Positions 31,133-60,807 of a stretch of 64,000 nucleotides of DNA are shown here, in pieces. The notes under the pieces were generated by a model, which was not told the origin of the DNA, did not search any database, and saw nothing but the letters and a program-made list of their open reading frames with translations. This DNA comes from an uncultured Acidobacteriaceae bacterium (GTDB taxonomy: Bacteria; Acidobacteriota; Terriglobia; Terriglobales; Acidobacteriaceae). Position numbers and translations under genes: made by a program. Position 1 is the first letter of the stretch. Every line of letters begins with the position of its first letter. The stretch is from positions 51,006-115,005 of the forward strand of contig CAXTEE010000005.1 of the NCBI GenBank assembly GCA_964243375.1, read 5' to 3'.

Positions 31133-31170
31133 GGAATCAGACGGGAATAAAGAAGTTCCTCCTGTGTTCT
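31133..31170 (+). promoter_or_regulatory. Two tandem ECF-type promoter motifs upstream of the Ser/Thr kinase
   Basis: GGAAT(31133)-N17-GTTCC and GGAAT(31144)-N17-GTTCT. Confidence 0.6.
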
Positions 31171-41763: not shown

Positions 41764-41794
41764 GAAATAACCCCCCACCTTAACGGTTTATTCC
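41764..41794. promoter_or_regulatory. Overlapping divergent ECF-type promoter motifs (9-13-9 quasi-palindrome)
   Basis: Plus strand GAAAT(41764)-N17-GTTTA; minus strand GGAAT(41794)-N18-GTTAT. Confidence 0.6.
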
Positions 41795-44297: not shown

Positions 44298-44328
44298 GGA
44301 ATAGACACTCGCCACCCGTGTTTATTCC
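44298..44328. promoter_or_regulatory. Overlapping divergent ECF-type promoter motifs (GGAATAGAC-N13-GTTTATTCC)
   Basis: Plus strand GGAAT(44298)-N17-GTTTA toward tssB; minus strand GGAAT(44328)-N17-GTCTA toward tssK2. Confidence 0.65.
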
Positions 44329-44417
44329 AGCAGAGCAAAGTAGGACTGCCCGAGCCGATCGAGGCAGGGTCGTTCAACTCGTTACATTTTATAGTTCCCG
44401 GAGTGATAGGAGCAGAC

Positions 44418-44930
44418 ATGACTAGAGAAAGTACACAACGCAAGTTGAGCCGGGTCCGTCCACCGCGCGTGCAAATCACCTACGACGTGGAAGTCGGCGA
44501 TGCTATTGAGTTGAAGGAACTGCCATTCGTAATGGGAATTCTCGCAGATCTCACCGGACAACCAGAGCAGCCACTTGCGCCGCTTAAGGAGCGAAAGTTC
44601 ACCGAAATAACCCCGGACAATTTTGACGCCGTCCTCAGCAGTCTAGACCCTCGTCTCGCCTTTTCCGCCGAGAATGTCCTCAGCAACGATCCGACCAAGG
44701 GGCAGCTGCACGTGGACTTGCATTTTGAATCCATGGACGACTTTTCCCCCGAGCGCGTAGCTGCACGGATTGAGCCTTTGCGGCAGTTGCTCGAACTTCG
44801 CACCAAGCTCTCCGATTTGCAGGGTAGCTTGCAAGGCAATGACAAGCTCGATGAAGCACTGTTCGCTGCTGTGACCAACACAGAGCTCCGCGAGAAGCTT
44901 CGCTCCGAACTGAACACCCCGGGAGAATAG
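44418..44930 (+). CDS. tssB: T6SS sheath small subunit TssB
   Basis: STQRKLSRVRPPRVQITYDVE, ELPFVMGILAD, DFSPERVA. Confidence 0.96.
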   Translation: MTRESTQRKLSRVRPPRVQITYDVEVGDAIELKELPFVMGILADLTGQPEQPLAPLKERKFTEITPDNFDAVLSSLDPRLAFSAENVLSNDPTKGQLHVDLHFESMDDFSPERVAARIEPLRQLLELRTKLSDLQGSLQGNDKLDEALFAAVTNTELREKLRSELNTPGE

Positions 44931-44932
44931 TG

Positions 44933-46429
44933 ATGGCAAACCAGAACGCAGCTGTAGACACAATGATTGTGGAATCACACCTCTCCAACGCCAAGACGCC
45001 GTTGCTCGATCAGATAGTGACCGAGGGCCGCTTCAACCGGGATGACTCCGCAGCCGAGCGCGGACGCGATCTTGTCAAAGAGTTCGTGGCTCAAGTCCTG
45101 GAAGGCCGCATGACGTTGACCCGGGACGCTGAGTCTTCCATTCAGACGCGCCTCGCCCAAATTGATCAGCTCATCTCCAAGCAGTTGAACAAGGTTTTGC
45201 ACCATCCAGCCTTTCAGAAATTGGAGGGTACGTGGCGCGGGATACGTTATCTCCTAGACCAGAGCGAGACCGGCGTGATGCTGAAACTGAAGATTCTTAA
45301 TACCTCGAAGCGTGAATTACTGCGCGACCTACAGCGTGCTTCGGAGTTTGACCAGAGCGCGTTATTCAAGAAGGTCTATGAGGAAGAGTTCGGAGTGTTC
45401 GGCGGCGCGCCCTTCGCAGCAATAATTGGAGACTACGAGATCGGCCGCGGTCCAGAAGACATCGATTTTTTGACCCGTGTGGCGCAGGTTGCAGCTTCGG
45501 CGCATGCGCCATTCCTGACTGCCGCTGCGCCTGAACTCTTGAACCTTTCAGACTTCACGCAGCTGGGCTCACCGCGCGACATTGCAAAGATCTTCGATTC
45601 AACCGAGTACGCCAAGTGGAAGTCCTTTCGGCAATCCGAGGATTCCCGTTACGTCGGTCTCACCCTGCCGCGTACTCTGGCACGCCTGCCCTACGGCAAA
45701 GAAACCACTCAGATAGACGGCTTTGACTACGAAGAAGATGTTGATGGCTCGGACCACTCAAAATATTTGTGGAGCAACGCGGCGTACGCTCTCGGTGCTC
45801 GACTTACGAGTGCGTTTGCTGAATATGGCTGGCTGGCCGCGATCCGTGGCGTAGAAGGTGGCGGTCTGGTCGAAGACCTTCCGGCGCATAACTTCTCGAC
45901 CGATGAAGGAGATGTCGCACTCAAATGTCCGACGGAAGTGCAGATCACCGATCGTCGCGAAAAGGAGCTGGCCGATCAGGGATTTGTGCCGCTCGTTCAT
46001 TGCAAAGGAACGGATTATGCCGCATTCTTCAGCGTGCAATCCGCAAACAGGCCCAAGCTCTACGATAAGGATGCTGCAAACGCCAATGCACGTCTTTCAG
46101 CACAGTTGCCATACATTCTCGCCATGTCACGCTTCGCGCACTACTTGAAGGCAATGATGCGGGACAAGATCGGTAGCTTTACTAGCAGGGAAGAGTGTCA
46201 GGTCTTCCTCAATCGCTGGATCAGTCAGTACGTGCTTGCGGATGACTCTGCGTCGCAAGCCGCAAAGGCGAAGTTACCTCTTCGCGAAGCCTCGATTGAG
46301 GTCTCTGATGTATCTGGAAAGCCCGGAGCTTACCGCGCAGTCGCTTTCCTGAAGCCACACTTTCAACTCGATGAACTCACCATCTCTCTACGCCTCGTTG
46401 CTGACCTGCCGGAATCGGCCCGCAACTAA
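44933..46429 (+). CDS. tssC: T6SS sheath large subunit TssC
   Basis: LHHPAFQKLEGTWRG, KKVYEEEFG, ITDRREKEL, PHFQLDEL. Confidence 0.97.
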   Translation: MANQNAAVDTMIVESHLSNAKTPLLDQIVTEGRFNRDDSAAERGRDLVKEFVAQVLEGRMTLTRDAESSIQTRLAQIDQLISKQLNKVLHHPAFQKLEGTWRGIRYLLDQSETGVMLKLKILNTSKRELLRDLQRASEFDQSALFKKVYEEEFGVFGGAPFAAIIGDYEIGRGPEDIDFLTRVAQVAASAHAPFLTAAAPELLNLSDFTQLGSPRDIAKIFDSTEYAKWKSFRQSEDSRYVGLTLPRTLARLPYGKETTQIDGFDYEEDVDGSDHSKYLWSNAAYALGARLTSAFAEYGWLAAIRGVEGGGLVEDLPAHNFSTDEGDVALKCPTEVQITDRREKELADQGFVPLVHCKGTDYAAFFSVQSANRPKLYDKDAANANARLSAQLPYILAMSRFAHYLKAMMRDKIGSFTSREECQVFLNRWISQYVLADDSASQAAKAKLPLREASIEVSDVSGKPGAYRAVAFLKPHFQLDELTISLRLVADLPESARN

Positions 46430-46470
46430 GGCAAACAGTGACTAACCACGACGAATAGGAGCGGAACTGC

Positions 46471-46956
46471 ATGAGTGATCAAGGCGTAGATTATTTTCTC
46501 AAGCTGGACGGCGCGCAGGGCGAATCGCAACACACAAACCACACCAATGAAATACGAGTGCTCAGCTGGAGTTATGGAGGCAACTCGGAGAGTACAGTTG
46601 GCCGAACCCAGGGTTCTGGGGCCGGAAAGGTTACGATGCTGCCTATCAGCATCGTAGCCGAGCTCGATTCGTCGTACACGAAGCTGTCGGGCTTTCTAAC
46701 ACAGGGCAAGCACATTCAGAGTGGTACGTTAACCGCAGTCAAGCAGGGTTCTGGCAATCAGGACTTCGTAACCATCAAGCTAAGTGAGATCTTCATCGCC
46801 TCTATGCATATAGCCGCGTCTGGACAAGTGCCGGTCGTCAATATGGAGCTCACGTACAAGTCCATTAATACGCAATATAAGATGCAGAATTCCCAGGGCA
46901 ATCTGACTACCGCGGGCGCACACACCTACGATGCGTCAACCAATCTGACTTCGTAA
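46471..46956 (+). CDS. hcp: T6SS tube protein Hcp (TssD)
   Basis: DYFLKLDGAQGESQ..EIRVLSWSYG; 161 aa. Confidence 0.95.
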   Translation: MSDQGVDYFLKLDGAQGESQHTNHTNEIRVLSWSYGGNSESTVGRTQGSGAGKVTMLPISIVAELDSSYTKLSGFLTQGKHIQSGTLTAVKQGSGNQDFVTIKLSEIFIASMHIAASGQVPVVNMELTYKSINTQYKMQNSQGNLTTAGAHTYDASTNLTS

Positions 46957-47645
46957 TGAAGAGCATCCTGGAACTCTATCGCGAAGGCGATCTGCGAGCT
47001 GCTCTTCAGGAGACCGGAGAGCAGCTGCGCACGCGGCCAAGTGATTTGAAGCTGCGAGCTTTCCTTTTTGAACTGCTCAGTTTCGCTGGAGAATGGGAGC
47101 GAGCCGAGAAACAGCTAAAAGTGTTAGCTGCACAGAGTTCCTCCGCCGCGTCGGGAGCTGTTCTGCTCCAAGGACTGCTTCAGGCACACCGAACGCGCGA
47201 ACAGGTCTTTGAGGAGAGGCGCGCAGCGGCACCCGCGAACAACTGCTTTCAGCCAATGGTCGTCAATCGGATTCACTTCGAGCGCTGCGCAGATGAAGAT
47301 GATCGGATTTGTGGCCTAGAGATCTATGCGTCGCGGGGTTATGAGATTGTTCCCTGGCTGGAGGTGCAACAATTACAGACCGGAAAGCCGGCGACGCTGC
47401 GTGACCTGCTGTGGCTTCCTGCACGTCTTCTTCGCCGGAACGAGACTGAAGTCCAATCAGTCTATCTGCCCTCTCTTGCACCCGGAAGCTGGAAGCATAC
47501 AAACGACTCTGTGCGTCTCGGACGGACTAGCGTGATGGAGGGGTTGGAGGAGCATGATCTGGTGCCGTTTGGAGTGAAGTACCTGTTGTGCGATGGAGAG
47601 GCCATTTCGTGGCTCGACCTGCGCAATCTTGAAGTAAACCTCTGA
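46956..47645 (+). CDS. tagJ: T6SS accessory TagJ/ImpE
   Basis: LRAFLFELLSFAGEWERA, LRDLLWLPA, VRLGRTS. Confidence 0.88.
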   Translation: MKSILELYREGDLRAALQETGEQLRTRPSDLKLRAFLFELLSFAGEWERAEKQLKVLAAQSSSAASGAVLLQGLLQAHRTREQVFEERRAAAPANNCFQPMVVNRIHFERCADEDDRICGLEIYASRGYEIVPWLEVQQLQTGKPATLRDLLWLPARLLRRNETEVQSVYLPSLAPGSWKHTNDSVRLGRTSVMEGLEEHDLVPFGVKYLLCDGEAISWLDLRNLEVNL

Positions 47646-47656
47646 GGGAGTCTGTC

Positions 47657-49375
47657 GTGCTAGCCATAGAAGATCTGCTGCAACCGATCGATCTGACGGA
47701 TACATCCGGCAGGAACCTTCGCTACGATCCGTTGATTGATCGCATTCGCAACGCCCGCTCGGAAGAAGATTCCTCTCTCCCCATGGGGGAGTGGGAGCAC
47801 CAGGCCAAGCGCGCCGACTATCCTCTTGTTGCATCCTTGGCCGAAAGCGCTCTTCAAACACGCAGTAAAGATCTTTGGCTTGCGGTCTGGCTCGCAGAAG
47901 CCTATCTACAGATGGAGCGGTACGATGCTCTCGTGCGGGTTATCGAGTTGCTCCTGGCTTTGCAACAAGATTTCTGGCCCTCTCTGTATCCGGAGATCGA
48001 AGATGGCGATCTGTCATTGCGCGTGGCACCCCTACAGTGGGCTCTGAGCCGTTACTCCACGCTGCTTCAGCAGTTCCCATTTACTGCAGATGGCGTCCCT
48101 TACGTCTCCTACAAAGACACTCGCTCCGGTGCAACAGTCGCTTTTGGTGAAGAAGTTCTCACGGCTGAACAGATTGACAGCTCCATCGCCGCGACTCCCG
48201 ATTCGTTCTACACCGGGATCGAAGATCGGCTTACCTCAACCCTCACCGTACTTCGGGAGCTGCATCTGTTTTGCGAAGAGCACTACCTGGATGAGGGACC
48301 TTCTTTCGTACAGATACGGTCGACATTGGAGGAGTTGCACCATGCATCCAGCCAAATCTCTCGTAATAGGCGAAGTGTAAGTTCAAAGCCGGAAATAACT
48401 GGCTCTCAGTGGTTGCTGTCTCCCGAACATAATGCTGAACCCGCCCTGGATCAACTGCGGGTCGCAGCGTTTCACCCCGAGGAGCAAGTAGCCTTAACTT
48501 CTTGGGCATCAGCATTGCAGCAGCTCCAGCAATGTGCCGACTACATGATCGAAGAGAGGCCGGACAATCCGACCTGCTACCTCCTTGCGATCGCTTTGCA
48601 ATATGGGCGAGACAAGACGAAGGAGATATCTCCTTCGTCGGAGCTGCGCCTGGAACTCAGGAGGGCGCGGGATGCGGGTGAGCCTACGATCTTTCTGCAG
48701 AAAGCGCTTCATGCAATGACCCAAGGAGGCAGTCATGCTTGGATCGACCTGCTGCATTACGTGTGGCAGGCGGCCGTTGCGCTGAACGCATCGTCGCTGC
48801 AAACCTCTGTGCTCTTTCAGACTCGAGCGCTGCTGCAGCAGAAAGCCGGCATGGGGGAGGCAGCATTCGAAGACGACACACCTGTAGCAAGTAGTGAGAC
48901 CCAGCGCTGGTTAGCGGAACAGATCTTTCCCCATGCAAATGCTCCGGTCACAATGGGGCAGCCAATTGCTCCAGTTGAGCCTTGGCTGTTGGAGAACTCA
49001 GACTTGGGATCGCAGGCACGGCTGCTAGCCGAAGAAGGAAACATCGCGAAAGCTGCACATCTTCTTACAGAAGATGCGTCGGTCTTGCGAAGCGGTCGCG
49101 CTTCCTTCTTAGGACGCCTCGATGTGACGCGGCTCTGCGTGCAGAACGGCCATGTCGCAATCGCAACCCACATGCTGCGCCAGTTGCTAGCAGAAGTTGA
49201 TGAACGAAAGCTCGAACAATGGGAGGATCCGGCAGTTCTGGGCGAGCTCCTCTCTCTCTTTGTGGAGGTTCTCGCACATGGCTCTCAAGCCGATCAGGGC
49301 GAACGAAACGCCATTTACGCTCGGCTCTGCCAAGTCAACCCTGCCATGGCGCTGAGCCAGGCCATGACGGGCTAG
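47657..49375 (+). CDS. tssA: T6SS TssA (ImpA_N with long C-terminal region)
   Basis: GRNLRYDP..ADY..RSKDLWLA..FWPSLYP. Confidence 0.9.
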   Translation: MLAIEDLLQPIDLTDTSGRNLRYDPLIDRIRNARSEEDSSLPMGEWEHQAKRADYPLVASLAESALQTRSKDLWLAVWLAEAYLQMERYDALVRVIELLLALQQDFWPSLYPEIEDGDLSLRVAPLQWALSRYSTLLQQFPFTADGVPYVSYKDTRSGATVAFGEEVLTAEQIDSSIAATPDSFYTGIEDRLTSTLTVLRELHLFCEEHYLDEGPSFVQIRSTLEELHHASSQISRNRRSVSSKPEITGSQWLLSPEHNAEPALDQLRVAAFHPEEQVALTSWASALQQLQQCADYMIEERPDNPTCYLLAIALQYGRDKTKEISPSSELRLELRRARDAGEPTIFLQKALHAMTQGGSHAWIDLLHYVWQAAVALNASSLQTSVLFQTRALLQQKAGMGEAAFEDDTPVASSETQRWLAEQIFPHANAPVTMGQPIAPVEPWLLENSDLGSQARLLAEEGNIAKAAHLLTEDASVLRSGRASFLGRLDVTRLCVQNGHVAIATHMLRQLLAEVDERKLEQWEDPAVLGELLSLFVEVLAHGSQADQGERNAIYARLCQVNPAMALSQAMTG

Positions 49376-49383
49376 GGGAACAC

Positions 49384-49845
49384 ATGCCTCGTTCCCGGGA
49401 AACGATCTTCGCACAGTCCTTGATGGAGCGTCTGCGTGAGCAAGAAACTTGGCCAGTCACGCAAGCTGCGTCTGTGCGCATGCTAAAAGAATCCATCCGA
49501 CGCGATCTCGAAACGCTCCTTAACACGCGCCGCGTGTCACCTCGTGAGCTCGAGGGCTATATCGAAGCAGGTAGTTCGGTTCTGAACTATGGCCTCGAAG
49601 ATCTAAGCACGCTTCGGGCGACGCCGAACGGATATCTGCGGGAGATGCAGCGTTCCGTGCAGCATTGTCTTTCCAGCTTCGAGCCGCGACTTACGAACGT
49701 AACAGTAAGTCTCCAAAATGGGGACCTGCTACACCGCGAGATCCGCTTGCATATCGAGGCGACCCTTCCTCTCTACCCGAGCGTCGAAAGCGTGTCGTTC
49801 GACACCGTCTTTGATCTCACCAGCGAAACGTACTCCGTAGGCTAG
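49384..49845 (+). CDS. tssE: T6SS baseplate TssE
   Basis: IRRDLETLLNTRR, SVLNYGL, FEPRL; start MPRSRE at 49384. Confidence 0.93.
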   Translation: MPRSRETIFAQSLMERLREQETWPVTQAASVRMLKESIRRDLETLLNTRRVSPRELEGYIEAGSSVLNYGLEDLSTLRATPNGYLREMQRSVQHCLSSFEPRLTNVTVSLQNGDLLHREIRLHIEATLPLYPSVESVSFDTVFDLTSETYSVG

Positions 49846-49847
49846 CG

Positions 49848-51692
49848 ATGCGACAGCAACTTCTGGAATATTACGAACGCGAACTCGGCTATATGCGGCA
49901 GATGGGAGCCGAGTTCGGAAAGAAGTACCCGGCGGTGGCCGGTCGCCTTCTCCTCGAATCTGATCGTTGTTCGGATCCCCATGTCGAGCGATTGCTGGAG
50001 TCCTTCGCATTCCTGGCCGCGCGCATTCACCTCCGGCTCGACGACGATCTCCCCGAACTCACGCAAAGCATTCTGGATCTTGTCTATCCCGACTACCTAC
50101 GCCCTATCCCTTCAATGTCGATCGCTGAGTTCGCGCCGGGTGAGATGCGCGCTGAGGGAGGCAGCGCATTGAGCATACCTGCCGGAAGCGAGCTCACCGC
50201 GAAGCGGACAAAGGATGGCGTTGCATGTAAATTTCGTACCGGCTACCCGGTCGCCCTATGGCCGGTTGACCTGAAGGAGTGCGAGTGGAAACGTCCGGAA
50301 CAAATCACCAATCCTTTACGCGTCAGCGAAGCCTGTGCCGTTCTACGACTGGTTCTCAAGTGTGGACGCGACCTCTCGTTCGGAAAAATCGGTATAGACC
50401 GGCTCACCTTCTATCTTGCAGGGGAGGCCAGTGTCACGCTACCGCTTTATGAATTTCTCTCCCGCGATCTACTGCAGGTTCTTGTCCGCGATCCGCTTCG
50501 AAAGCAAGCGTCAGCGGTACCGCTTGCTTCAACCAAGCTGCGGCCCATGGGCTTTGCTCCCGAGGAGAGCCTCCTTCCCTACTCGCAGCGCTCGTTCCAG
50601 GGGTACCATCTGCTCCAGGAATACTTCTGCTTTCAGGAGAAGTTCCTCTTCTTTCAACTCGAAGGGCTGCAGGCTGCGGCTGAAGCTGCAAACATCTCCG
50701 GAGAGATGGAGCTTCTCTTCTACGTGTCGCAGTTCGAACAAACGGAACGCATGCAGACGCTTGAGCTAGGTGTTTCGACTGACACCCTTCGCCTGAACTG
50801 CACGCCCATTATCAACCTGTTTCAGACCACTGCAGAACCGGTTCTGGTCTCGCAGACGCGTCATGAGTACCCCGTAACTGTGAACGCGCGTAGTCGTGCG
50901 AGCGCTGAAATTTTCTCCATTGACTCGGTACTCGCGACCAATCCCTCCAGGCGCACCTCTGTCACGCTGCCACCACTCTTCGAGCGTCGTTTTTTGGTAG
51001 CTCCTGCACAATCCTCAGCGTTCTGGCGAGCAACCCGTAAGTATTCGCAGCTGGACAAAGGCCGCCCCAGCGACGTCTATCTTTCCGTCGTTGATGTGCA
51101 GGGGGCAATGGTTGAGCCAAACGCCGAGATTCTCACGGTGGGCTGCACCTGCACTAACCATGAACTCGCTTCAAAGCTCCCGTTCGGCGATGCCGACGGC
51201 GACTTCTATCTAGACGGCGGCTCTGGCGTGGGAAAGATTCAGGTTCTGCATCGCCCCACACCAACCTATCCCGCACCCGCTGGAGGTGAACAGGTGTGGA
51301 GTCTGATCTCACAACTATCTCTGAACCACCTGTCCGTTGGGGAAACTGGCCTTCCTGCACTGCGCGAGATCCTGCGCCTCCACAACTTCACCGCAGCTGC
51401 CCATCTGAATAAGCAGATCGACGGGCTTCTTTCCATGCAGGCTAGGAAGCATGTCGCGATTATGCAGAGTGAATTCGGAAGTGTCGCTGCGAGAGGCATG
51501 CTCGTCGATATGGAACTTGACGAGTCACATTTTCCAGGTGGCGGCGCATACCTATTTGGCGCCGTGCTCGATCAATTTCTTGGCCTATACGTCTCAATGA
51601 ACAGCTTTTCGCAGCTGAGAGTTCGCACCCCTGCGAGAAAGGAGGCATTAGGCTCATGGCAACCGAGAGCAGGCAGCCAAGCGCTGCTATAG
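49848..51692 (+). CDS. tssF: T6SS baseplate TssF
   Basis: LLEYYERELGY, DPHVERLLESFAFL, LNCTPIINLF. Confidence 0.96.
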   Translation: MRQQLLEYYERELGYMRQMGAEFGKKYPAVAGRLLLESDRCSDPHVERLLESFAFLAARIHLRLDDDLPELTQSILDLVYPDYLRPIPSMSIAEFAPGEMRAEGGSALSIPAGSELTAKRTKDGVACKFRTGYPVALWPVDLKECEWKRPEQITNPLRVSEACAVLRLVLKCGRDLSFGKIGIDRLTFYLAGEASVTLPLYEFLSRDLLQVLVRDPLRKQASAVPLASTKLRPMGFAPEESLLPYSQRSFQGYHLLQEYFCFQEKFLFFQLEGLQAAAEAANISGEMELLFYVSQFEQTERMQTLELGVSTDTLRLNCTPIINLFQTTAEPVLVSQTRHEYPVTVNARSRASAEIFSIDSVLATNPSRRTSVTLPPLFERRFLVAPAQSSAFWRATRKYSQLDKGRPSDVYLSVVDVQGAMVEPNAEILTVGCTCTNHELASKLPFGDADGDFYLDGGSGVGKIQVLHRPTPTYPAPAGGEQVWSLISQLSLNHLSVGETGLPALREILRLHNFTAAAHLNKQIDGLLSMQARKHVAIMQSEFGSVAARGMLVDMELDESHFPGGGAYLFGAVLDQFLGLYVSMNSFSQLRVRTPARKEALGSWQPRAGSQALL

Positions 51693-52723
51693 ACGAAGTA
51701 AGTGTTAACGCTATGCAGCAATCGCTACACGCACTGATGGAAGCCGAACCGCATAGCTTCCGCTTCTTTCAGATGGTCCGGCTACTGGAGAAGCTTCATC
51801 CTGACCGCCGCGCCGTGGGCATCTTCGTCTCGCCATCGGATGAAGTAGTGCGATTCACCGCGGCGCCGGCACTCACCTTTCCTCCAAGCGAAATCGGACC
51901 GTATCGGCCCGGTATCGATCGCCCGGCTTCTCTTGAAGTGAACTTCCTGGGGCTCAACGTGGTGAACGGTCCCATGCCACGTAGCTACACGGAAAGTCTT
52001 CTGGAACTGAAACGAGCCAAGGATCGCGCAACTCTGGAGTTCTTCGATCTCTTCAACCATCGCATAGTATCGCTGTTCTACCGTGCTTGGGCTCGCTATC
52101 GTTTCTATCTTGCCTACGAAAAATCAGGCGGAGGGGGCGACCATGAGATTACGGAGCGACTCTACGATCTCGTCGGCTTAGGCACGCCAGACCTGCGCAA
52201 CCGTATGGCTATTCCGGACGAAAGCGCGATCTACTACTCCGGTCTTCTCAGTAGAGACGTTCGGTCCGTTGAAGCTCTCCGGCAAATTCTGGAGAGCTAC
52301 TTCAGCGTACGCGTTGAGGTTCGGCAGTTCACGGGCTCGTGGGTTTCTCTGCCGCGGGAGCAGCGGACGGTGTTGAACGACAGCGCAATGCCGTCCGAGT
52401 GTCTCGGCATCGGAACGGTCATAGGCCACGAGGTGTGGGATCAGCAAGGCACCATGACGGTGCGGCTTGGTCCCATGCCTCTCGACCGGTATCGCGAATT
52501 TCTGCCTGGCTCCCGTGGTCAGGTAGAGCTCAGCGCGTGGCTCAACTTCTACTCGCGGCGAGTGTTCGATTTTGTTGTACAGCTCGTGCTCGAACGGACC
52601 CAAGTTCCGCATACGGCGCTCGAGACCGGTGAGGCCATGCACGGCCGTCTCGGCTATGAGAGCTGGTTAAAGACCAAACCCATGCGCCGCGATCCCGACG
52701 AAACAACCTACTTAGTCAGATAA
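51656..52723 (+). CDS. tssG: T6SS baseplate TssG
   Basis: FRFFQMVRLLE, FFDLFNHRIVSLFYRAW, VRLGPM. Confidence 0.95.
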   Translation: MATESRQPSAAIDEVSVNAMQQSLHALMEAEPHSFRFFQMVRLLEKLHPDRRAVGIFVSPSDEVVRFTAAPALTFPPSEIGPYRPGIDRPASLEVNFLGLNVVNGPMPRSYTESLLELKRAKDRATLEFFDLFNHRIVSLFYRAWARYRFYLAYEKSGGGGDHEITERLYDLVGLGTPDLRNRMAIPDESAIYYSGLLSRDVRSVEALRQILESYFSVRVEVRQFTGSWVSLPREQRTVLNDSAMPSECLGIGTVIGHEVWDQQGTMTVRLGPMPLDRYREFLPGSRGQVELSAWLNFYSRRVFDFVVQLVLERTQVPHTALETGEAMHGRLGYESWLKTKPMRRDPDETTYLVR

Positions 52724-52732
52724 GGACATCTT

Positions 52733-55393
52733 ATGGTCACAAACATCAAGTCACTCGTTTCCCGGTTCGATGATGGAACCAGACAGGCTATGGAGGGCGC
52801 GGCAGGCCTTTGTCTTTCAAGAACCCACTATGAAATTGAGATCGAGCATTTCCTCGTGAAGGCCTTCGAGCCAGAGAACACCGACCTGCCTTTAATTGCT
52901 CTGCACTTCGGAGTGAGCAGGGGGCATCTCGATTCGCAACTCAGGGCCGGTCTCGATCGCTTAAGATCTGGGAATACGCGTGGCCCCGTATTCAGCCCGG
53001 CGCTGGTGAAGATGTTTACCGAAGCCTGGTCACTTGGAAGCCTGAACTTTGGCGCGACCAACGTTCGTACGGGGCACGCGCTTTTGGCGTTGTTGAGTGA
53101 AGATGGTCTCGCGCGTATCCTTCGCGACTTGAGTCAGGAGCTTCGTAAGATCTCGCTCGAGGCACTTCTGCGGGAGTTCGATTCGATCACTGCCTCATCG
53201 ATCGAAGTGGAGACGTTTACTGGTTCTCACAGTTCGGGAAGGACATCGCCGGGAGTCACACCCTTCCTCGACCAGTACACCGTCGATCTGACGCACGCCG
53301 CGCGCGATGGCCGTATCGATGCGGTCGTCGGCCGCGACGCGGAGATTCGGCAGATGATCGACATCCTTATGCGTCGCCGACAGAACAATCCCATCCTCAC
53401 TGGCGAAGCAGGCGTGGGGAAGACAGCTGTTGTTGAAGGCCTGGCACAGCGCATCGCGGCAGGAGATGTACCGCAGGCGCTTGCATCTGTGCGCCTCCAC
53501 AGTCTCGATCTGGCCCTCCTGCAGGCGGGCGCCAGCGTAAAGGGCGAGTTTGAAAACAGATTGAAGGGCTTAGTTCAGGAGGTAAAAGCTTCCCCCGCTC
53601 CAATTATTCTCTTCATCGACGAAGCGCACGCGATGATCGGAGCAGGCGGGCAGCAGGGACAGGGCGACGCAGCGAACATCCTCAAGCCGGCACTCGCGCG
53701 CGGAGAACTTCGTACGATTGCGGCAACCACCTGGGCAGAGTACAAACGCTACTTCGAGAAGGATGCTGCACTGGTACGCCGATTCCAGGTCGTCAAGGTG
53801 GAGGAACCCTCCGAGCAGGTGTGCGAAGCCATGTTGCACGGCATCTTGCCCTCGCTGGAAAAACACCATCGCATCCGCATTCTGGATGAAGCAATTGGAG
53901 CTGCTGTCCGGCTTTCCCACCGCTATCTTCCTGGTCGCCAGCTTCCCGACAAAGCAGTAAGTGTTCTCGATACCGCATGCGCGCGGGTAGCGCTCAGTCA
54001 GCACACCCATCCCACGACCATGGTGTCCCTCACGCGCCGCATTGAGATGCTCGAGACCCATAAGCGCGTCTTGCTGCGTGAACTAGCGACGGGAGCGCAG
54101 CATGCCGAGCGTATTGCGGAAGGTGACGAACAAATTCGACTCGCCACGGAGGATTTGGAACGGCTTCGCGAACGATGGGCTAAAGAAGGAGAGCTCGTTC
54201 GCAGGATAGAAGCGCTCTATGTCGTTCTCGAGGACGGGCAGGCATCCGGGGGAGAGGAGCGCGCCGAGGCTCTTACCGAGCTAAGTGACTTACGTGCACG
54301 TTTGCGCGACTCTCAATCGCAGATCCCGCTCACCCACCTTGCTGTCGACGCACAGGTCGTCGCCTCCGTTGTCTCGGAGTGGACCGGAATCCCTCTCGGC
54401 AAGATGATGGACGACGAGATCGTCAAGGTCTTGAACTTGGAAGCGGAGCTCAAAAATCGAATCATAGGTCAGGACCACGCGCTCGCAGCCATCGCTCAAC
54501 GCGTTTGGACATCGCGAGCCAACATGGATGATCCCGGAAAGCCCATCGGCGTGTTCATGTTGGTTGGGCCCAGTGGCGTCGGTAAAACGGAGACCGCGCT
54601 TGCGCTCGCGGATCTCCTCTATGGAGGCGAGCACAACATGGTGACGATAAACATGTCTGAGTTTCAGGAGCCGCACTCCGTCTCCACACTGAAAGGCGCG
54701 CCACCGGGATATGTGGGCTACGGCGAAGGAGGCGTACTCACCGAAGCCGTGCGCCGCCAGCCATATTCTGTCATCCTTCTGGACGAAGTCGAAAAGGCTC
54801 ATCCAGACGTGCTCGAGTTGTTCTTCCAGGTCTTCGACAAAGGCCAGATAGAAGATGGCGAGGGTCGCTCGATCGACTTCCGCAACACGCTCATCCTGCT
54901 AACGACGAACGCGGCAAGCGACCTCATCTCCAAGTTGTCGGCCGATGCAGAAACAACGCCTCTTCCCGCCAACATGGCCGCCGCGATTCGGCCCGAGCTC
55001 AACCGCGTTTTCAGGCCTGCATTTCTGGGCCGCACGCTGGTCGTGCCCTACTACCCGGTTCACGATGAGGTTTTGAAGCGGATCATCCGTCTCAAGCTCA
55101 GTAAGATCGAGCGACGACTCCTTGAGAACCACCGCGTGCGACTTGCATATGGGGACGACCTCGTCGAATTGGTTCGGCAGCGCTGCACCGAAGTCGAGAG
55201 TGGCGCGCGCAACGTCGACCATTTGCTCTCGAATACGCTCTTGCCTGAAATGGCGCGCGGTCTGCTGGCGCGTATGGCCGACGAAGAATCTATCGAGAGT
55301 GTCGCCGTCAGCGTATCGGCCGCGGGTGACCTCACCTACGCTTGGTCCGCCTCCAAGCATGATGAGGTCCCCGCCGCCTACATCTTGGCGTAG
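52733..55393 (+). CDS. tssH: T6SS AAA+ ATPase ClpV (TssH)
   Basis: GEAGVGKT and GPSGVGKT Walker A motifs; ClpV N-terminus; CTEVESGARNVD. Confidence 0.96.
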   Translation: MVTNIKSLVSRFDDGTRQAMEGAAGLCLSRTHYEIEIEHFLVKAFEPENTDLPLIALHFGVSRGHLDSQLRAGLDRLRSGNTRGPVFSPALVKMFTEAWSLGSLNFGATNVRTGHALLALLSEDGLARILRDLSQELRKISLEALLREFDSITASSIEVETFTGSHSSGRTSPGVTPFLDQYTVDLTHAARDGRIDAVVGRDAEIRQMIDILMRRRQNNPILTGEAGVGKTAVVEGLAQRIAAGDVPQALASVRLHSLDLALLQAGASVKGEFENRLKGLVQEVKASPAPIILFIDEAHAMIGAGGQQGQGDAANILKPALARGELRTIAATTWAEYKRYFEKDAALVRRFQVVKVEEPSEQVCEAMLHGILPSLEKHHRIRILDEAIGAAVRLSHRYLPGRQLPDKAVSVLDTACARVALSQHTHPTTMVSLTRRIEMLETHKRVLLRELATGAQHAERIAEGDEQIRLATEDLERLRERWAKEGELVRRIEALYVVLEDGQASGGEERAEALTELSDLRARLRDSQSQIPLTHLAVDAQVVASVVSEWTGIPLGKMMDDEIVKVLNLEAELKNRIIGQDHALAAIAQRVWTSRANMDDPGKPIGVFMLVGPSGVGKTETALALADLLYGGEHNMVTINMSEFQEPHSVSTLKGAPPGYVGYGEGGVLTEAVRRQPYSVILLDEVEKAHPDVLELFFQVFDKGQIEDGEGRSIDFRNTLILLTTNAASDLISKLSADAETTPLPANMAAAIRPELNRVFRPAFLGRTLVVPYYPVHDEVLKRIIRLKLSKIERRLLENHRVRLAYGDDLVELVRQRCTEVESGARNVDHLLSNTLLPEMARGLLARMADEESIESVAVSVSAAGDLTYAWSASKHDEVPAAYILA

Positions 55394-55413
55394 CAAGGAA
55401 AGGTTCGTGCGGT

Positions 55414-57348
55414 GTGCCCGGCTATACACAAACAAATCGCATTTTGCGGCTCAACAGCTCCCTAGGAGCGAACACACTGCTTCCCATGGGTTTCAGCGGC
55501 AGCGAGGCCCTCTCGGAACTCTTCGAGTATAGTGTCGACCTCCTGACAGAATCCTACGTTGTCATCGCACCCTCCGCGATCGTTGGCAAACGGGTGACCG
55601 TCGAACTTCAGGTAACAGACACCGGAACGAAGCGGTACTTCAATGGCATGGTTGCGAGTATCGAAGGCAATGGGGGAAGCACGCTCTTCAACAGCTATCG
55701 CCTGCGTATGGTCCCAATGTTGTGGCTGCTCTCACTCAACCAGCAGACGCGCGTCTTTCAGGACATGTCCGTGCTTGATATCACACGCAAGGTATTGGCG
55801 CCGTATAGCATCACCCCCAAAGTCGAAACGCACACAACCTACCAGATCTTGCAGTACTGCACGCAGTATCGCGAAACCGATCTTGAGTTCGTCCTGCGTA
55901 TCTTGGAGCAGCACGGCATCTTCTTCTACTTCACACATAGTGCCTCCGACCACGTGCTCGTCCTCTCGGATGCAAGCACCCTTTGTGGAGAGTGCTCTGT
56001 GGTCAGCGAATTCGACTTCTTCGTGGAAAGGGAGCGGCAGCTTAGCTTCTATAAGCCCATCATCCTCGGCTTCCGGTCGCGTTCCACGCTCATTCCGGGT
56101 GAGCACACGGCTTGGGACTACCGCTTCATGCGTTACGACGTGTCGCACGCAAATCCGCAGACCTTGCATTCTACCGCCGAGATGGGTGAGAACAGCCACG
56201 AAATGTATGACTTTAGCGACTCAGCAGCAGCGTTCTTCAAGACCGAAGCAGCTGAATACAGGACGCCCCTGCAGCAAACGCTAATGCAAAGAGTGAACCG
56301 CGACGCTATCGATGCGCAGGCCGTCGTCTGCTCTGGTGAATCCACCGCCAGCACCATGCAGGCCGGGTTCAGCTTCAAGCTTCGGAAGTACCCACAGACC
56401 GAAAAGAATATTAAGTACCTCCTCACGCGAGTCACGCACTCTGTGCAACAACAGCCGGGCTACCAGGCCGAGATTACTTTGCCGGATGATGACCCTTACA
56501 CAAACACGTTTGAGGCCCAACCCTTTTCTCACATCTACCGCAAGGCGAGAACCATGGTTAAGCCACGTGTCTACGGCGTTGTCACCGGCAAGGTAGTCAC
56601 CTCTCCGGGAGATGACTCGCATCTCGATCGCTTCGGCAGGGTCTGCGTGCAGTTCTGGTGGGATCGCCATCGTCCCCCGCAAACACCTGACAAGACCCTC
56701 CTCCGCGTCGCTCAGCAATGGGCCGGGAAGGGGTGGGGAACGTACTTCTGGCCTCGCGTCGGGGACGAAGTGCTCATCGATTTTATCGAGGGCGATCCCG
56801 ACGCTCCTGTCGTCGTCGGCTCACTCTACAACGGCGTCAACATGCCGAAGTATGATCCAAAGTCCGAGTACACCCGCTCAGGCATTCTGACGCGATCCTC
56901 TCGAAGAGGAACGGAGGAGAATGCCAATGAACTTCGCTTTGAAGATCTGCGAGGGGCGGAACAAATCTTCGTAAAAGCGGAGCACGACATCGACGAGCGC
57001 ATCAAGCACGACTCGAGACGCTGGGTGGGCAACCAGGACTCACTTGTCGTCATAGGAGACCAGCTGGAAAGGGTGGAAGGAAGCCAGTACGCAACGGTCC
57101 TGGGAAACATCCTGCAGAAGGTGGACGGCTCTTCTTCCTCGATCGTTGCTGACCAAATCATTGTGCAGTCCGGAACGCAGATAACGCTGCAAGTAGATTC
57201 TTCCTTTATTCAGCTAAGTCCTGCTGGGGTGGTGATCTCAGGGCCGCTGGTTCGGATTAATAGTGGAGGAACCCCCGGGATGAGCCCAGGAATACCAAGG
57301 AATCCGGATGTAGCCGACGACGGCACCAAGGGAGGCAAGTTGTCGTAA
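55414..57348 (+). CDS. vgrG: T6SS spike VgrG (TssI), no C-terminal effector extension
   Basis: YCTQYRETDLEF, WPRVGDEVLIDFIEGDPD, NELRFED. Confidence 0.95.
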   Translation: MPGYTQTNRILRLNSSLGANTLLPMGFSGSEALSELFEYSVDLLTESYVVIAPSAIVGKRVTVELQVTDTGTKRYFNGMVASIEGNGGSTLFNSYRLRMVPMLWLLSLNQQTRVFQDMSVLDITRKVLAPYSITPKVETHTTYQILQYCTQYRETDLEFVLRILEQHGIFFYFTHSASDHVLVLSDASTLCGECSVVSEFDFFVERERQLSFYKPIILGFRSRSTLIPGEHTAWDYRFMRYDVSHANPQTLHSTAEMGENSHEMYDFSDSAAAFFKTEAAEYRTPLQQTLMQRVNRDAIDAQAVVCSGESTASTMQAGFSFKLRKYPQTEKNIKYLLTRVTHSVQQQPGYQAEITLPDDDPYTNTFEAQPFSHIYRKARTMVKPRVYGVVTGKVVTSPGDDSHLDRFGRVCVQFWWDRHRPPQTPDKTLLRVAQQWAGKGWGTYFWPRVGDEVLIDFIEGDPDAPVVVGSLYNGVNMPKYDPKSEYTRSGILTRSSRRGTEENANELRFEDLRGAEQIFVKAEHDIDERIKHDSRRWVGNQDSLVVIGDQLERVEGSQYATVLGNILQKVDGSSSSIVADQIIVQSGTQITLQVDSSFIQLSPAGVVISGPLVRINSGGTPGMSPGIPRNPDVADDGTKGGKLS

Positions 57349-57413
57349 TGTCTGACCTGCGATCTCGAGAAACTGACCACCCTCAGAAAAAGATAGTTGA
57401 AGGAGAGACACCA

Positions 57414-57803
57414 ATGCCGCTTCAAACATGCTTAGGTGCAACGCTGCGCTGCAGCTTCGGAGTCGCACCCAGCGAACTGATGGTGCTGCCTGTAAACCGG
57501 GTCATCACCAACGACCGGCCGGATGCCAACATCGGCGATCATGTGCCTCTTATCAACATTCTCCCATTTGGAATGTGTATCTCTGAGGCAAACCCAGCCG
57601 TGATAGCTGCCACCATCGCGGCGCTGGGCGTTCCAACCCCGGCACCCTGCATTCCGGCAACACCTTCCCCTTGGATTCCTGGATCCGTCAACGTCCTTCT
57701 CGGCAACCAACCGAGCTTGAGCAGTGATTCGAAGCTGATGTGCTTGTGGGCTGGCGTAATCACCATAGTCCAGCCTGGTGAGGAGACAGTGCTAATTAGC
57801 TAG
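57414..57803 (+). CDS. DUF4280 PAAR-like spike tip protein
   Basis: ATLRCSFG, NILPFGMC, PAPCIP, LMCLWAGVITI; AAGGAG RBS. Confidence 0.9.
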   Translation: MPLQTCLGATLRCSFGVAPSELMVLPVNRVITNDRPDANIGDHVPLINILPFGMCISEANPAVIAATIAALGVPTPAPCIPATPSPWIPGSVNVLLGNQPSLSSDSKLMCLWAGVITIVQPGEETVLIS

Positions 57804-57985
57804 AACAGGTCAGTTCGGAACATCTTGGCCGACACAGTCAGAACCAACGCGAAGACCGTCGAGGACCAGGGTTCGATGCGGACAAGAGGGTGCATTGTAA
57901 CGTCGCGATTTCGGCAGCATTGGTGGGCTTTTAGAGCACGTCGCAAGTCGTTGCAAGAACTTCGAAACATTGAAAATAAAGGAGT

Positions 57986-58561
57986 ATGTCTACTCCCCAG
58001 GTATCAATCGCATCTTCGGCATTTGGAAGTGAGCATATCGACAGCTTGTATCGCTACGCGCTCGTGTTGACCCGCAATCAGTCCGATGCGGAGGATCTGG
58101 TACAGGAAACGTATGTACGAGCAATCGAGGCATTCAATCGACTGCGTGAGGACAGCAACGTGAAGGCATGGCTTTTCACAATTCTGCGGAATCTTTGGCT
58201 CAACGCACTTCGAAAGCGTCGAAGTGGGCCAAAGCTGGTGGAAGAGGATGGGGAGAACCGTACTCTTGATGATCTCGTAGGAACAATGCCGGATGCCTAC
58301 AAACTTCTTGAAGACGAGGAAGACGCCAGTCGTGTTCGATCAGCTATCAGCAAGCTTCCTTCAGACTTCCAGACGATCCTCATCCTGAGGGAGTTTGAGG
58401 AGCTTAGTTATCAGGAGATAGCCACGGTTCTCAGTTGCCCGGCAGGCACCGTCATGTCGCGTTTGGGAAGGGCACGGGCGAAGCTCCGAATCCTGTTGAC
58501 AGAGGGGGGGAGCAAGCCTCTACAGTCGGGAAGAATGGACCAGCATGAGCAGCTGCGATGA
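57986..58561 (+). CDS. ECF sigma-70 factor (SigR/SigH-like)
   Basis: DAEDLVQETY, VKAWLFTILRN, LSYQEIA..CPAGTVMSRLGRAR; AAGGAG RBS. Confidence 0.95.
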   Translation: MSTPQVSIASSAFGSEHIDSLYRYALVLTRNQSDAEDLVQETYVRAIEAFNRLREDSNVKAWLFTILRNLWLNALRKRRSGPKLVEEDGENRTLDDLVGTMPDAYKLLEDEEDASRVRSAISKLPSDFQTILILREFEELSYQEIATVLSCPAGTVMSRLGRARAKLRILLTEGGSKPLQSGRMDQHEQLR

Positions 58562-59519
58562 GCATCGGGCGAACATTTCGCTCTTGATCGATGGGGAACT
58601 CGCACAGGAAGATCACAGAAATCTCGTCGCACACTTTGAGCAGTGTGCGTCCTGCCGGAGTGCGCTTCAGGATGAGCAAGCACTCTCTGCCCGGATCAGA
58701 GCCGCTCGACCGCGGATCGCAGCGCCCGACTCACTACGGGCCTCTATAGAACGTATGCTCCGAGCTGCAGCAGTCTCCACACCCGCTACTCGCCGCATGA
58801 CCTTCACATCTCCTCATCTTTGGCTGCGGCCACTGCTTGCTGTCGCTGCCATACTCATCCTGATCGCCGGAAGTACGTTCGCCTTCCATAAGCATCGCCA
58901 GGACCGCAACGAAGTTGTCATTCAGGCCGCCACGACAGCTCATCAACAACTCCGGGATCGGGTCGTACCACTCGACATCATCTCTGATTCCCCCGAGGCC
59001 GTGACCTCGTGGTTCGCAAGCAGAGTGTCCTTCCCATTTCGCATGGCAAACGCGGGCATCGCATCCGATTTGCGAGCAAACTACAAACTCGATGGCGGAC
59101 GACTCCTCACTATCGGCGATGATCGAGTAGCTGTAGTCTCCTTTCACATGCTGCATGAGCAGGTCAGCATGCTCGTTGCTCCTCAGCGGCTTCTCACAGC
59201 GTCGGGCGGCAAGGTCGTCGTCTCAGGTGGAATTGCCTTGCACAGCCGCGATCGAGATTCAATCCATACCGTGATGTGGAACAATCGCGGACTCGGATAC
59301 GTGCTGAGCGCGAACACTTCCATGAGCAATCCGCATACATGTGCCACCTGCCATGAAGGATCACAAACTGGTGCGAACACGGGCAGTAGGACATTTGCCT
59401 CAAGCCTTGCGCCTTGGAGCACCAATGGTTCTCTTCTGTCGCCGACGTTGAAAGTAGCAGACGTGCCAGCGCACATCGAAGAGGTGGGAGCAGACTTAAA
59501 CAGGAACACGGCTCAGTGA
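58545..59519 (+). CDS. Transmembrane anti-sigma factor with ZAS (zf-HC2) motif and periplasmic CxxCH motif
   Basis: HFEQCASC; one TM; CATCH at 59340-59354; overlaps the sigma gene by 17 nt. Confidence 0.88.
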   Translation: MSSCDEHRANISLLIDGELAQEDHRNLVAHFEQCASCRSALQDEQALSARIRAARPRIAAPDSLRASIERMLRAAAVSTPATRRMTFTSPHLWLRPLLAVAAILILIAGSTFAFHKHRQDRNEVVIQAATTAHQQLRDRVVPLDIISDSPEAVTSWFASRVSFPFRMANAGIASDLRANYKLDGGRLLTIGDDRVAVVSFHMLHEQVSMLVAPQRLLTASGGKVVVSGGIALHSRDRDSIHTVMWNNRGLGYVLSANTSMSNPHTCATCHEGSQTGANTGSRTFASSLAPWSTNGSLLSPTLKVADVPAHIEEVGADLNRNTAQ

Positions 59520-59676
59520 GTCGATCTCCAGGCTAGCATTCCGAGGTGACGTGATCCGCTGAAAGCTGGCGGAAAGTACAGCTGGTCAGAGATAATCTTG
59601 CGGGGCGGTACTACCTAACGAAATGCTTGGCCTGCGAGAACAGAAAGTGACGAGACACCACAAGAGGCAGAGAAGC

Positions 59677-60807
59677 ATGTCACTGTGCGTCATCCTGTTT
59701 GTCTGCGTTCTGGCTCGAACAGTATCAGCGCAGAACGACCTCGCGTTCCAGGCGGCCTCACTGATGCATGCAGGAAACTTTGCCGAGGCTGAGAAGGTCT
59801 GGCGTACCCTGGTTCGGCTCCATCCCGAAGATGCTTCAGCACACAATGGCCTCGGATCGACCCTCGCGCAAGAGGGAGAGCTGACCGCCGCTGCAACCGA
59901 GTATAAATCCTCACTCCGGCTGAATCATCATCAGGTCGATGTCGCCTACAATCTCGGTCTGGCAGAGTTCAAACAGGGGCGATTCAACCAAGCCGCCGAA
60001 GCCTTTCTGCAGGTGCATTTGGCAAGACCAGATGACGAGCACAGCAACATGCTTCTCGGCATGAGCTACTTCGGACTAAGACAATATCCCTCGGCGGCGA
60101 AATATCTGCAGCTGGCAAGTACACACGATGCCACCAACGCAGAGCTGCACAGTGTCCTGGCGCAGAGCTGCCTCTGGAGCAAGCAATATGACTGTGCGTT
60201 GAAGGAATATCGCAGTCTCTTGCAGGCGAATCCCGACTCTCTCCATGCACACATGCTCATGGCAGAGGCTTTGGATGGCTCAGGCAGAACGCAAGATGCC
60301 ATTGCAGAGCTTGAAACAGCCGCTCGTATGTCGCCCGCCGAACCACTCCTTCATTTCGAGTTGGGCTACTTGTACTTCAAGAAGGGAGATCTGGAGTCCG
60401 CCGCGCCGGAGTTACTCTTGGAAATTCAGAACAATCCAGGCTATGCGCAGGCCTACACCTACCTCGGGGATCTTCGTCTTAAGACCAACGACACACCCGG
60501 TGCGGAGCAACTGCTTCAAAAGTCGCTTACGTTAGACCCCAAAGCTAGGATGGCCATCTTTGACTTAGGGTGTATTTACGCGGATCAGGATAAGCGTCCC
60601 GAAGCACTGGCAGCCCTGGAGCAGGCGGTGACTCTCGACCCCACGCAGCCCGACGCTCACTACCGGCTGGCGCGCCTGTATACCCGCATGGGAGAGAGGG
60701 ACAAGGCGGCAAAGGAGTTTGCCAGGACGAAGAGCCTGCACACAAAAACCGACGACACCCTGATTCAACGGATATCGGGGCAGGATGTAACTCGGGAAGC
60801 TCGATGA
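59677..60807 (+). CDS. Secreted TPR protein
   Basis: Signal MSLCVILFVCVLARTVSAQ; multiple TPRs. Confidence 0.9.
   Translation: MSLCVILFVCVLARTVSAQNDLAFQAASLMHAGNFAEAEKVWRTLVRLHPEDASAHNGLGSTLAQEGELTAAATEYKSSLRLNHHQVDVAYNLGLAEFKQGRFNQAAEAFLQVHLARPDDEHSNMLLGMSYFGLRQYPSAAKYLQLASTHDATNAELHSVLAQSCLWSKQYDCALKEYRSLLQANPDSLHAHMLMAEALDGSGRTQDAIAELETAARMSPAEPLLHFELGYLYFKKGDLESAAPELLLEIQNNPGYAQAYTYLGDLRLKTNDTPGAEQLLQKSLTLDPKARMAIFDLGCIYADQDKRPEALAALEQAVTLDPTQPDAHYRLARLYTRMGERDKAAKEFARTKSLHTKTDDTLIQRISGQDVTREAR

Follow-up and report, generated by a model that had tools for sequence, protein, structure and literature searches.

The 64,000-nucleotide (nt) stretch of DNA analysed here (the window) comes from an uncultured Acidobacteriaceae bacterium (contig CAXTEE010000005.1 of assembly GCA_964243375.1, positions 51,006 to 115,005). 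At the downstream end of a type VI secretion system (T6SS) operon it encodes an extracytoplasmic function (ECF) sigma factor and a membrane-anchored anti-sigma factor, and the latter almost certainly carries a conserved and functional CxxCH motif, the attachment motif of haem c, on the outer side of the membrane. The explanation that we favor for the whole system, and to which we give slightly better than an even chance, is that the anti-sigma factor senses oxidants or the redox state of the periplasm through haem c and thereby gates a T6SS cluster that is autoregulated. A first-pass annotation, made by a model from the sequence alone, had proposed a zinc-binding anti-sigma (ZAS) factor with one transmembrane (TM) helix and a periplasmic CATCH motif, acting as a two-sided redox or gas sensor.

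The gene for the anti-sigma factor starts 17 nt before the end of the sigma factor gene (Table 1). The N-terminus of its product matches the zf-HC2 model (E=2.8e-7; 30.9 bits against a cut-off of 22.2), and in a comparison of the family profile with solved structures the N-terminal 79 residues matched RsiW (5wuq, E=1.1e-9) and RsrA (5frf, E=1.2e-9). The sequence HFEQCASC occupies residues 30-37, and Cys4 is the fourth zinc ligand; among 130 homologues His30, Cys34 and Cys37 are invariant and Cys4 is 88% conserved. The AlphaFold2 (AF2) model places helices at residues 4-15, 21-33, 35-54 and 62-77 of this domain, followed by a long helix at residues 94-137. The sole hydrophobic stretch covers approximately residues 89-116 and is the only segment with a Kyte-Doolittle mean above 1.6. 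These findings bear out the proposed ZAS anti-sigma factor with a single TM helix. Since contact with the sigma factor requires the ZAS domain to be cytoplasmic and there is one TM helix, the protein would have an N-in/C-out topology and the CATCH motif would be extracytoplasmic. Judged by its sequence, the protein is a class I ZAS anti-sigma factor with the RsiW architecture.

The outer domain is modeled as a seven-stranded sheet with two helices, with a predicted local distance difference test score (pLDDT) mostly above 90. A sequence search of the PDB found no relative of the outer domain among solved structures, and Foldseek returned weak similarities to TM1622, the N-terminal domain of RseB/MucB, Tsi3 and PsbP (E of at least 2e-3; TM-score of at most 0.43). 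Cys266 and Cys269 of the CATCH motif are the only cysteines beyond the ZAS domain. The motif is exactly where the first-pass annotation had put it, but the protein does not end there: 54 more residues follow, with pLDDT below 50 for residues 273-311. Nothing past His270 is conserved within the Terriglobia clade, and the tail appears to be dispensable because some homologues terminate one to three residues beyond the CxxCH.

The partner of the anti-sigma factor is an ECF sigma factor, with matches to Sigma70_r2 (E=2.2e-18) and Sigma70_r4_2 (E=7.9e-16) in Pfam and an above-cut-off match to TIGR02937 (107 bits) in NCBIfam. Its best NCBIfam matches are SigH-like, with the score against the SigH equivalog TIGR02947 (118 bits), a model of the SigH/SigR-type (ECF12-like) class, falling under the cut-off of 251. 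The genome contains no close paralogue of this sigma factor; the runner-up is only 36% identical.

The CxxCH is a conserved, clade-defining feature of the anti-sigma family. A word-indexed search recovered 43 relatives and an exhaustive search of cluster representatives recovered 2434 at E<=1e-3, and the top 150 of these were examined; further relatives, including members in Candidatus Kryptonia, came from a profile search. When homologues were counted that cover the last strands of the outer domain and have at least 17 residues beyond, 197 of 210 had CxxCH at the same place and two others had CxxCD or CxxCR, and a histidine follows the second cysteine in 197 of the 199 CxxC-bearing members. 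The motif begins 11-13 residues after Leu254 in 194 of the 197 bearers, even as identity to the query drops to 22-25%. Chance would supply approximately 0.001 CxxCH per 206-residue stretch of such composition, and a chance occurrence is rejected by the conservation across homologues, which the first-pass annotation had named as the first thing to check. A tree calculated after removal of the motif region groups the bearers coherently, with one main split from the CxxCH-less relatives and four scattered losses.

Relatives that lack the CxxCH carry an amphipathic helix (SDLxxxEL..L) where the bearers have SDLEERGQQSCxVCH or a similar sequence. Common to both groups are the juxtamembrane His133, Trp156, Gly184, Trp245 and Tyr252. 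Position 233 is variable in the relatives without the motif, and the bearers have His (80%) or Tyr (17%) there; Phe232, Tyr180, Ser149, Leu141, Leu143 and Thr244 also co-vary with the motif. Databases name the family only as zf-HC2 or as "anti-sigma factor RsiW"-like. Its full-domain members are uncommon and patchily distributed, being present in 13 of 401 sampled Acidobacteriota genomes and 4 of 14 from the window's own genus, and cultured strains that carry the family are known in Acidisarcina polymorpha, Granulicella mallensis and Terriglobus saanensis.

Does the motif carry haem? We consider covalent attachment of haem to the outer CxxCH to be likely. The genome encodes CcmC, CcmB, CcmA and CcmE of the cytochrome c maturation (Ccm) system in one cluster and CcmF with a CcmH-like open reading frame (ORF) in another, all with scores under the equivalog cut-offs. 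ResB was not found in the genome and System II maturation was rejected on that ground, System I having been found instead; the maturation genes that the first-pass annotation wanted looked for are thus present in their Ccm form. Ccm systems load haem on exported CxxCH sequences, even in short tags and non-cytochrome proteins. The invariant His after the second Cys, together with His or Tyr at position 233, would be more in keeping with haem than with a disulfide or zinc site. A precedent comes from the DUF3365/Tll0287 sensor family, in which an exceptionally conserved CxxCH was proven experimentally to carry haem c (bioRxiv 10.64898/2026.02.01.703092).

Several observations weigh against haem attachment. 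None of the Pfam cytochrome models reached threshold (best E=0.047-0.065), no haem protein fold was among the Foldseek matches of the full-length and domain-only models, and a known haem fold was rejected on those weak, non-haem matches. The CATCH sequence sits on a short helix with pLDDT of approximately 50 in the models, the family has no conserved methionine, and Tyr replaces the candidate ligand His233 in a minority of members. Although CcmF/CcsA-family genes occur in all eight other carriers tested, this co-occurrence test has low power because most Acidobacteriota make cytochromes c. The missing cytochrome fold lowers the case that the domain is a cytochrome, and not the case that it binds haem c, because haem attachment needs no known fold.

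One alternative is that the outer CxxCH is haem-free and acts as a thiol/disulfide switch, or as a zinc or copper site together with His270 and His233, in which case the signal would be oxidation or the occupancy of the metal site. No cysteines other than these two lie outside the membrane, and the conserved Cys266, Cys269, His270 and His233 could make a Cys2His2 site. A CxxC thiol switch would also suit the peroxide regulon described below, a point that counts against the haem reading, as does the undetected cytochrome fold, and in the unrelated anti-sigma factor OsrA a periplasm-exposed cysteine is needed for the response to H2O2 (PMC3420878). A disulfide switch does not, however, require the near-invariant His after the second Cys, and the Tyr present at position 233 in 17% of members can serve as a ligand of haem iron but is poor for zinc. 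Furthermore, a haem-free motif would have to escape Ccm, which acts even on short exported tags. Periplasmic CxxC pairs are also usually constitutively oxidized. We regard this alternative as unlikely, while giving it more weight than a second one, in which haem is attached but is merely structural or serves as a check on maturation or haem supply. The apo-domain would then fold poorly and be degraded, and the system would report failed cytochrome c maturation, a shortage of haem or iron, or another envelope signal. In keeping with such a role, the CxxCH-less relatives have, in place of the motif, a C-terminal helix packed against the sheet, the motif region is modeled with low confidence without its cofactor, and the regulon in the deep branch consists of haem enzymes. 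KatG and cytochrome c peroxidase (CCP) nevertheless suggest peroxide and not the supply of haem, cytochrome maturation has no obvious connection with a T6SS output, and the clade-specific His or Tyr at position 233 suggests a tuned pocket. A structural haem therefore strikes us as improbable, and a sensory haem remains our preference.

The neighborhoods of the family provide a clue to the signal. At every locus examined the ECF sigma factor gene is the sole constant neighbor; it lies directly upstream, at a distance of at most a few tens of nt where the two genes do not overlap. In a deep clade, whose members end in SDLEERGQQSCxVCHxGxKDRDF, a periplasmic peroxidase-type haem enzyme is encoded divergently from the sigma factor gene in seven of nine loci. 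Two of these loci have canonical di-haem proteins of the CCP/MauG/MbnH type (PF03150, E=2.6e-58), one has an exported KatG with a signal peptide (1285 bits), and four have an exported protein of 451-466 residues with two CxxCH motifs, the C-terminal half of which matches the di-haem peroxidases 1iqc and 3o5c. Because three types of peroxidase recur across at least five taxonomic families, these arrangements argue for a functional link with peroxide in the deep clade. The context thus points to peroxide or redox rather than to the gas signal that had been the other option of the first-pass annotation, and H2O2 is our best guess because of the peroxidase regulon. We assign peroxide or periplasmic redox as the signal only tentatively, at somewhat less than an even chance.

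The same loci yielded a promoter motif, GGAAT(A)-N14/15-G(T/G)GT(T). Each of the seven peroxidase-linked intergenic regions has two copies, one facing the sigma factor gene and one facing the peroxidase gene, and the motif also precedes the sigma factor gene in six more loci, whose sigma factors are 46-65% identical to that of the window. Regions 2.4 and 4.2 of the window's sigma factor are almost identical to those of the sigma factors from motif-bearing loci. The window has four strict matches against 0.23 expected, and none of 100 shuffles reached four; two of the four, at 13411 and 20439, lie inside ORFs and have other spacings, and we discounted them as chance. The strict form GGAATA-N14-GTGTT occurs six times in the 4.46-Mb genome, twice at T6SS promoters, and a relaxed form has 14 occurrences, including four in T6SS promoter regions at 65-93 nt before the starts of the first genes. 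In Acidisarcina polymorpha the motif is found at the orthologous places, before the kinase gene and as an overlapping divergent pair between tssK2 and tssB, while the intergenic sequence around these sites has diverged.

The motif thus precedes three, and probably four, T6SS transcription units. A longer tssB ORF that starts with TTG at 44286 would overlap the tssB promoter; the VipA match starts only at residue 55 of that ORF. The tssB operon comprises genes for TssB, TssC, Hcp, ImpE/TagJ, TssA, TssE, TssF, TssG, ClpV, VgrG and a PAAR-like DUF4280 protein, and this same-strand set upstream of the sigma/anti-sigma pair is complete, with genes for TssK (two copies), TssL and TssM on the opposite strand. 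If the sigma factor is transcribed from the tssB promoter, positive feedback would follow. From the motif matches it appears likely that this sigma factor drives the T6SS cluster, and the suggestion that the pair may gate T6SS expression has gained support, since the motif that precedes the sigma factor genes of relatives also precedes T6SS operons here and in Acidisarcina.

It is possible that the T6SS is not under this sigma factor at all, that the pair is a mere neighbor and that the GGAATA...GTGTT sites serve another regulator or form a palindromic operator. No promoter was evident directly upstream of the window's sigma factor gene by eye, in a sigma-70 scan or with GGAAC-type patterns, the motif is absent from the 182-nt spacer in front of that gene, and in four close relatives (L007, L009, L012 and L064) it is absent within 400 nt of the sigma factor gene. 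The tssK2/tssB site at 44298-44328 is a near-palindrome (GGAATAGACAC-N9-GTGTTTATTCC) that is conserved in Acidisarcina, and this inverted repeat may be two face-to-face ECF promoters or the operator of a dimeric regulator. The tssK1 site is the weakest of the four, with GGGTT as its -10 element. The cluster has kinase/phosphatase control of its own, and most family members occur in genomes without a T6SS: TssF is wholly absent from six of nine carriers tested, and no T6SS lies near the pair in other relatives, including Terriglobus saanensis, Granulicella mallensis and Kryptonia. The T6SS link is therefore lineage-specific and not family-wide. All of these points, and the fact that the promoter assignment comes indirectly from motif matches and synteny, count against control of the T6SS by this sigma factor. 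On the other side, relatives with nearly identical DNA-binding regions have the same motif in the same orientation before their sigma factor genes, the site at the kinase gene is not palindromic and is conserved in Acidisarcina, and the genome has no close paralogue of the sigma factor. Moreover, the order TssF-TssG-ClpV-VgrG-(DUF4280)-sigma-antisigma is kept in four genomes, namely the window, Acidisarcina polymorpha (anti-sigma identity 53%) and two metagenome contigs (66% and 48%), while the genes downstream of the pair differ among all of these loci. We consider an independent T6SS rather unlikely, though less so than either alternative to a sensory haem.

Taken together, a sensory haem and sigma-driven T6SS expression suggest the following mechanism. 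By homology to RsiW and RsrA, the N-terminal zinc domain would hold the ECF sigma factor in the cytoplasm. The Ccm system would attach haem covalently to the CxxCH of the outer domain, with His270 as the proximal ligand and His233 as the distal ligand or a pocket residue. The haem would report a periplasmic oxidant or redox state, most plausibly H2O2, and its oxidation, a change of ligand or damage to it would destabilize the outer domain, after which regulated site-1 and site-2 proteolysis would clear the anti-sigma factor. The genome encodes an RseP-type site-2 protease; that release is proteolytic is an assumption taken from RsiW and RseA and a weakness of the model. The freed sigma factor would transcribe from GGAATA-N14-GTGTT promoters, which in deep-branching relatives would drive the sigma operon and the divergent periplasmic haem peroxidase. 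In the lineage of the window, where the pair is placed at the 3' end of the T6SS cluster, the targets would be the tssB operon (including the pair itself), tssK2, the kinase-phosphatase unit and probably tssK1-tssL-tssM. A bolder version, which we think rather doubtful, is that this is the first anti-sigma family to sense via covalent haem and that an ancestral peroxidase switch was rewired, in one Terriglobia lineage, to a self-amplifying T6SS that responds to oxidative attack from outside, with the RsrA-like zinc domain possibly adding a second, cytoplasmic redox input.

Table 1. Coordinates of the gene pair, protein features, candidate promoters and related genes (window positions unless a locus is named)
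Feature	Position	Strand	Basis
ECF sigma factor gene, SigH/SigR-like, 191 aa	57986..58561	+	Sigma70_r2, Sigma70_r4_2, TIGR02937
Single-pass ZAS anti-sigma factor gene, 324 aa, open frame	58545..59519	+	Pfam, profile matches
ZAS core, residues 4-38 (Cys4, His30, Cys34, Cys37), predicted cytoplasmic	58554..58658	+	PF13490
Transmembrane helix, ~residues 92-114	58818..58886	+	Kyte-Doolittle; AF2
Predicted extracytoplasmic alpha/beta sensor domain, ~residues 125-258, seven-stranded sheet	58917..59318	+	AF2
His233, candidate distal haem ligand or pocket residue	59241..59243	+	conservation
CATCH, the CxxCH haem-c attachment motif, residues 266-270	59340..59354	+	conservation
C-terminal tail, unconserved, predicted disordered	59355..59516	+	AF2, alignment
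T6SS structural operon upstream of the sigma factor gene	44415..57803	+	Pfam matches
Candidate ECF-type promoter GGAATAAAGAAGTTCCTCCTGTGTT, 65 nt before the Ser/Thr kinase gene (31234); heads the kinase-orf-PP2C unit	31144..31168	+	
Candidate ECF-type promoter GGAATAGACACTCGCCACCCGTGTT, ~93 nt before the likely tssB start (44415); heads the tssB...vgrG-DUF4280-sigma-antisigma unit	44298..44322	+	
Overlapping divergent copy GGAATAAACACGGGTGGCGAGTGTC, 77 nt before the tssK2 start (44227)	44304..44328	-	
Relaxed copy GGAATAAACCGTTAAGGTGGGGGGTT, 85 nt before the tssK1 start (41684); heads tssK1-tssL-tssM	41769..41794	-	
Exported two-CxxCH protein (related loci)	L036 6200-7600; L041 3794-5149; L058 6511-7899; L059 5631-7013		

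A number of other features of the window and of related loci were observed. The kinase-orf-PP2C unit (31234-36091) consists of genes for a PpkA-like Ser/Thr kinase with tetratricopeptide repeats (TPR; 937 aa), a 431-aa ORF product without a Pfam match and a PP2C phosphatase. Its position beside T6SS genes recalls the control of T6SS firing by threonine phosphorylation; the unit bears the same ECF-type promoter as the other T6SS units, and its synteny is kept in Acidisarcina polymorpha. The two TssK paralogues (40320-41684 and 42824-44227, both on the minus strand) are approximately 31-33% identical, as seen by comparison with Acidisarcina. Between them is a 323-aa ORF without a Pfam match (41843-42814, plus strand), and all three are kept in Acidisarcina polymorpha.

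Immediately ahead of the sigma factor start, at 57960-57985, is the sequence (T/G)(T/A)GAAAATAAGGRG, which is found at the same place in four other loci (L008, L011, L012 and L014) and is kept although the rest of the intergenic region varies, possibly as a leader element or an extended ribosome-binding element. Downstream of the pair (59623-62570) are genes for a TPR protein (394 aa) and an FG-GAP/ASPIC (CRTAC1-like) protein (588 aa), and their 4-nt overlap suggests an operon. These genes are not kept beside the pair elsewhere, with a 38% identical FG-GAP homologue located 3 kb downstream of the pair in one locus (L062), and we rejected them as parts of the system because the downstream genes vary across every T6SS-linked locus.

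The remaining strict motif matches in the genome (G000) are at C2:300150, C2:256285, C7:142231 and C39:1374. A 599-aa ORF starts 63 nt after the start of the C2:300150 motif and is a possible further member of the regulon. The exported protein of 451-466 residues had no Pfam match at E<=1e-3 and seems to belong to a so far undescribed, ECF-controlled branch of the CCP/MauG superfamily. Two tandem sigma/anti-sigma pairs, both bearing CxxCH (the second as CLVCH), are present on one metagenome contig (L043, 4815-8315). At another place (G259:C1, represented by both L013 and L065) the sigma factor gene is split between two frames, with tblastn pieces at 6445-6684 and 6729-6989, which reflects either a frameshift or an error in the assembly.

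Few bacterial signaling systems are as common as ECF sigma/anti-sigma pairs, though only a minority of membrane anti-sigma factors have a known input. If our reading is correct, a covalent haem input would be a new sensing principle for this branch of signaling, and haem-c sensor domains would gain both a new fold and a new output. What would be new is that redox or peroxide sensing outside the cell is coupled to gene expression by a haem-bearing anti-sigma factor. The known H2O2 sensors OxyR, PerR and OhrR are cytoplasmic, and the missing periplasmic counterpart would be provided by a sensor that controls periplasmic peroxidases. Acidobacteria are abundant in soil and have almost no characterized regulation; the predicted promoter and regulon provide a testable model of when these bacteria deploy their T6SS.

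Among known systems, RsiW/SigW of Bacillus subtilis has the same N-terminal anti-sigma domain and the same plan of ZAS domain, one TM helix and outer domain. RsiW has no CxxCH and no known cofactor, and its trigger is proteolysis by PrsW; the outer domain described here matches no solved structure by sequence. RsrA/SigR of Streptomyces and RshA/SigH of Mycobacterium share the identical spacing of ZAS ligands (C-x25-H-x3-C-x2-C), the sigma factor is closest to SigH-type models, and the regulon is tied to oxidative stress as in those systems. The SigR/SigH consensus, GGAAT-N18-GTT, resembles the GGAAT-N15-GTGTT of this family. RsrA, however, is soluble and senses cytoplasmic thiol oxidation through its ZAS cysteines, whereas this anti-sigma factor has a TM helix and an outer CxxCH domain. 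Its score against the RsrA equivalog TIGR03988 (43.1 bits) is under the cut-off of 62.5, which together with the TM helix places it outside the class of soluble RsrA-type redox switches; most ZAS domains are not redox switches. The sister group consists of COG5662-type ZAS anti-sigma factors without CxxCH, which share the ZAS domain, the TM helix, the beta domain and the five common residues listed above but end in the SDLxxxEL..L helix and lack the conserved His or Tyr at position 233.

For the T6SS output, the closest parallel is the EcfK/PknS system of Xanthomonas citri, in which an ECF sigma factor is required for expression of the T6SS cluster (PMC13147305). EcfK differs in being activated by Ser/Thr kinase phosphorylation, with no anti-sigma release and no haem motif. 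For the input, OsrA/EcfF of Bradyrhizobium japonicum likewise pairs a membrane anti-sigma factor and a periplasm-exposed cysteine with a response to H2O2 (PMC3420878). We rejected OsrA as a relative, since it is a six-TM protein of the DUF1109/NrsF type with no ZAS domain and no CxxCH.

Literature searches aimed at this question turned up no paper linking anti-sigma factors to CXXCH or haem c, in line with the absence of a precedent noted in the first-pass annotation. Haem c is nonetheless an established cofactor of other sensors, for example the chemoreceptor sensors GSU0582 and GSU0935 of Geobacter and DcrA of Desulfovibrio. The outputs of the sCache_haem (DUF3365/Tll0287) sensors are kinases, chemoreceptors and cyclases, and the word sigma is absent from the account of that family (10.64898/2026.02.01.703092), in which the binding of haem c and of nitric oxide was shown experimentally. 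Its fold is of the Cache or PAS type, as opposed to the seven-stranded sheet with weak RseB/MucB-like similarity found here. The sCache_haem family is nevertheless the nearest counterpart in design: it too is a periplasmic sensor family defined by an invariant CxxCH, and in both families the motif seems to have been added to a pre-existing fold that was free of cofactor.

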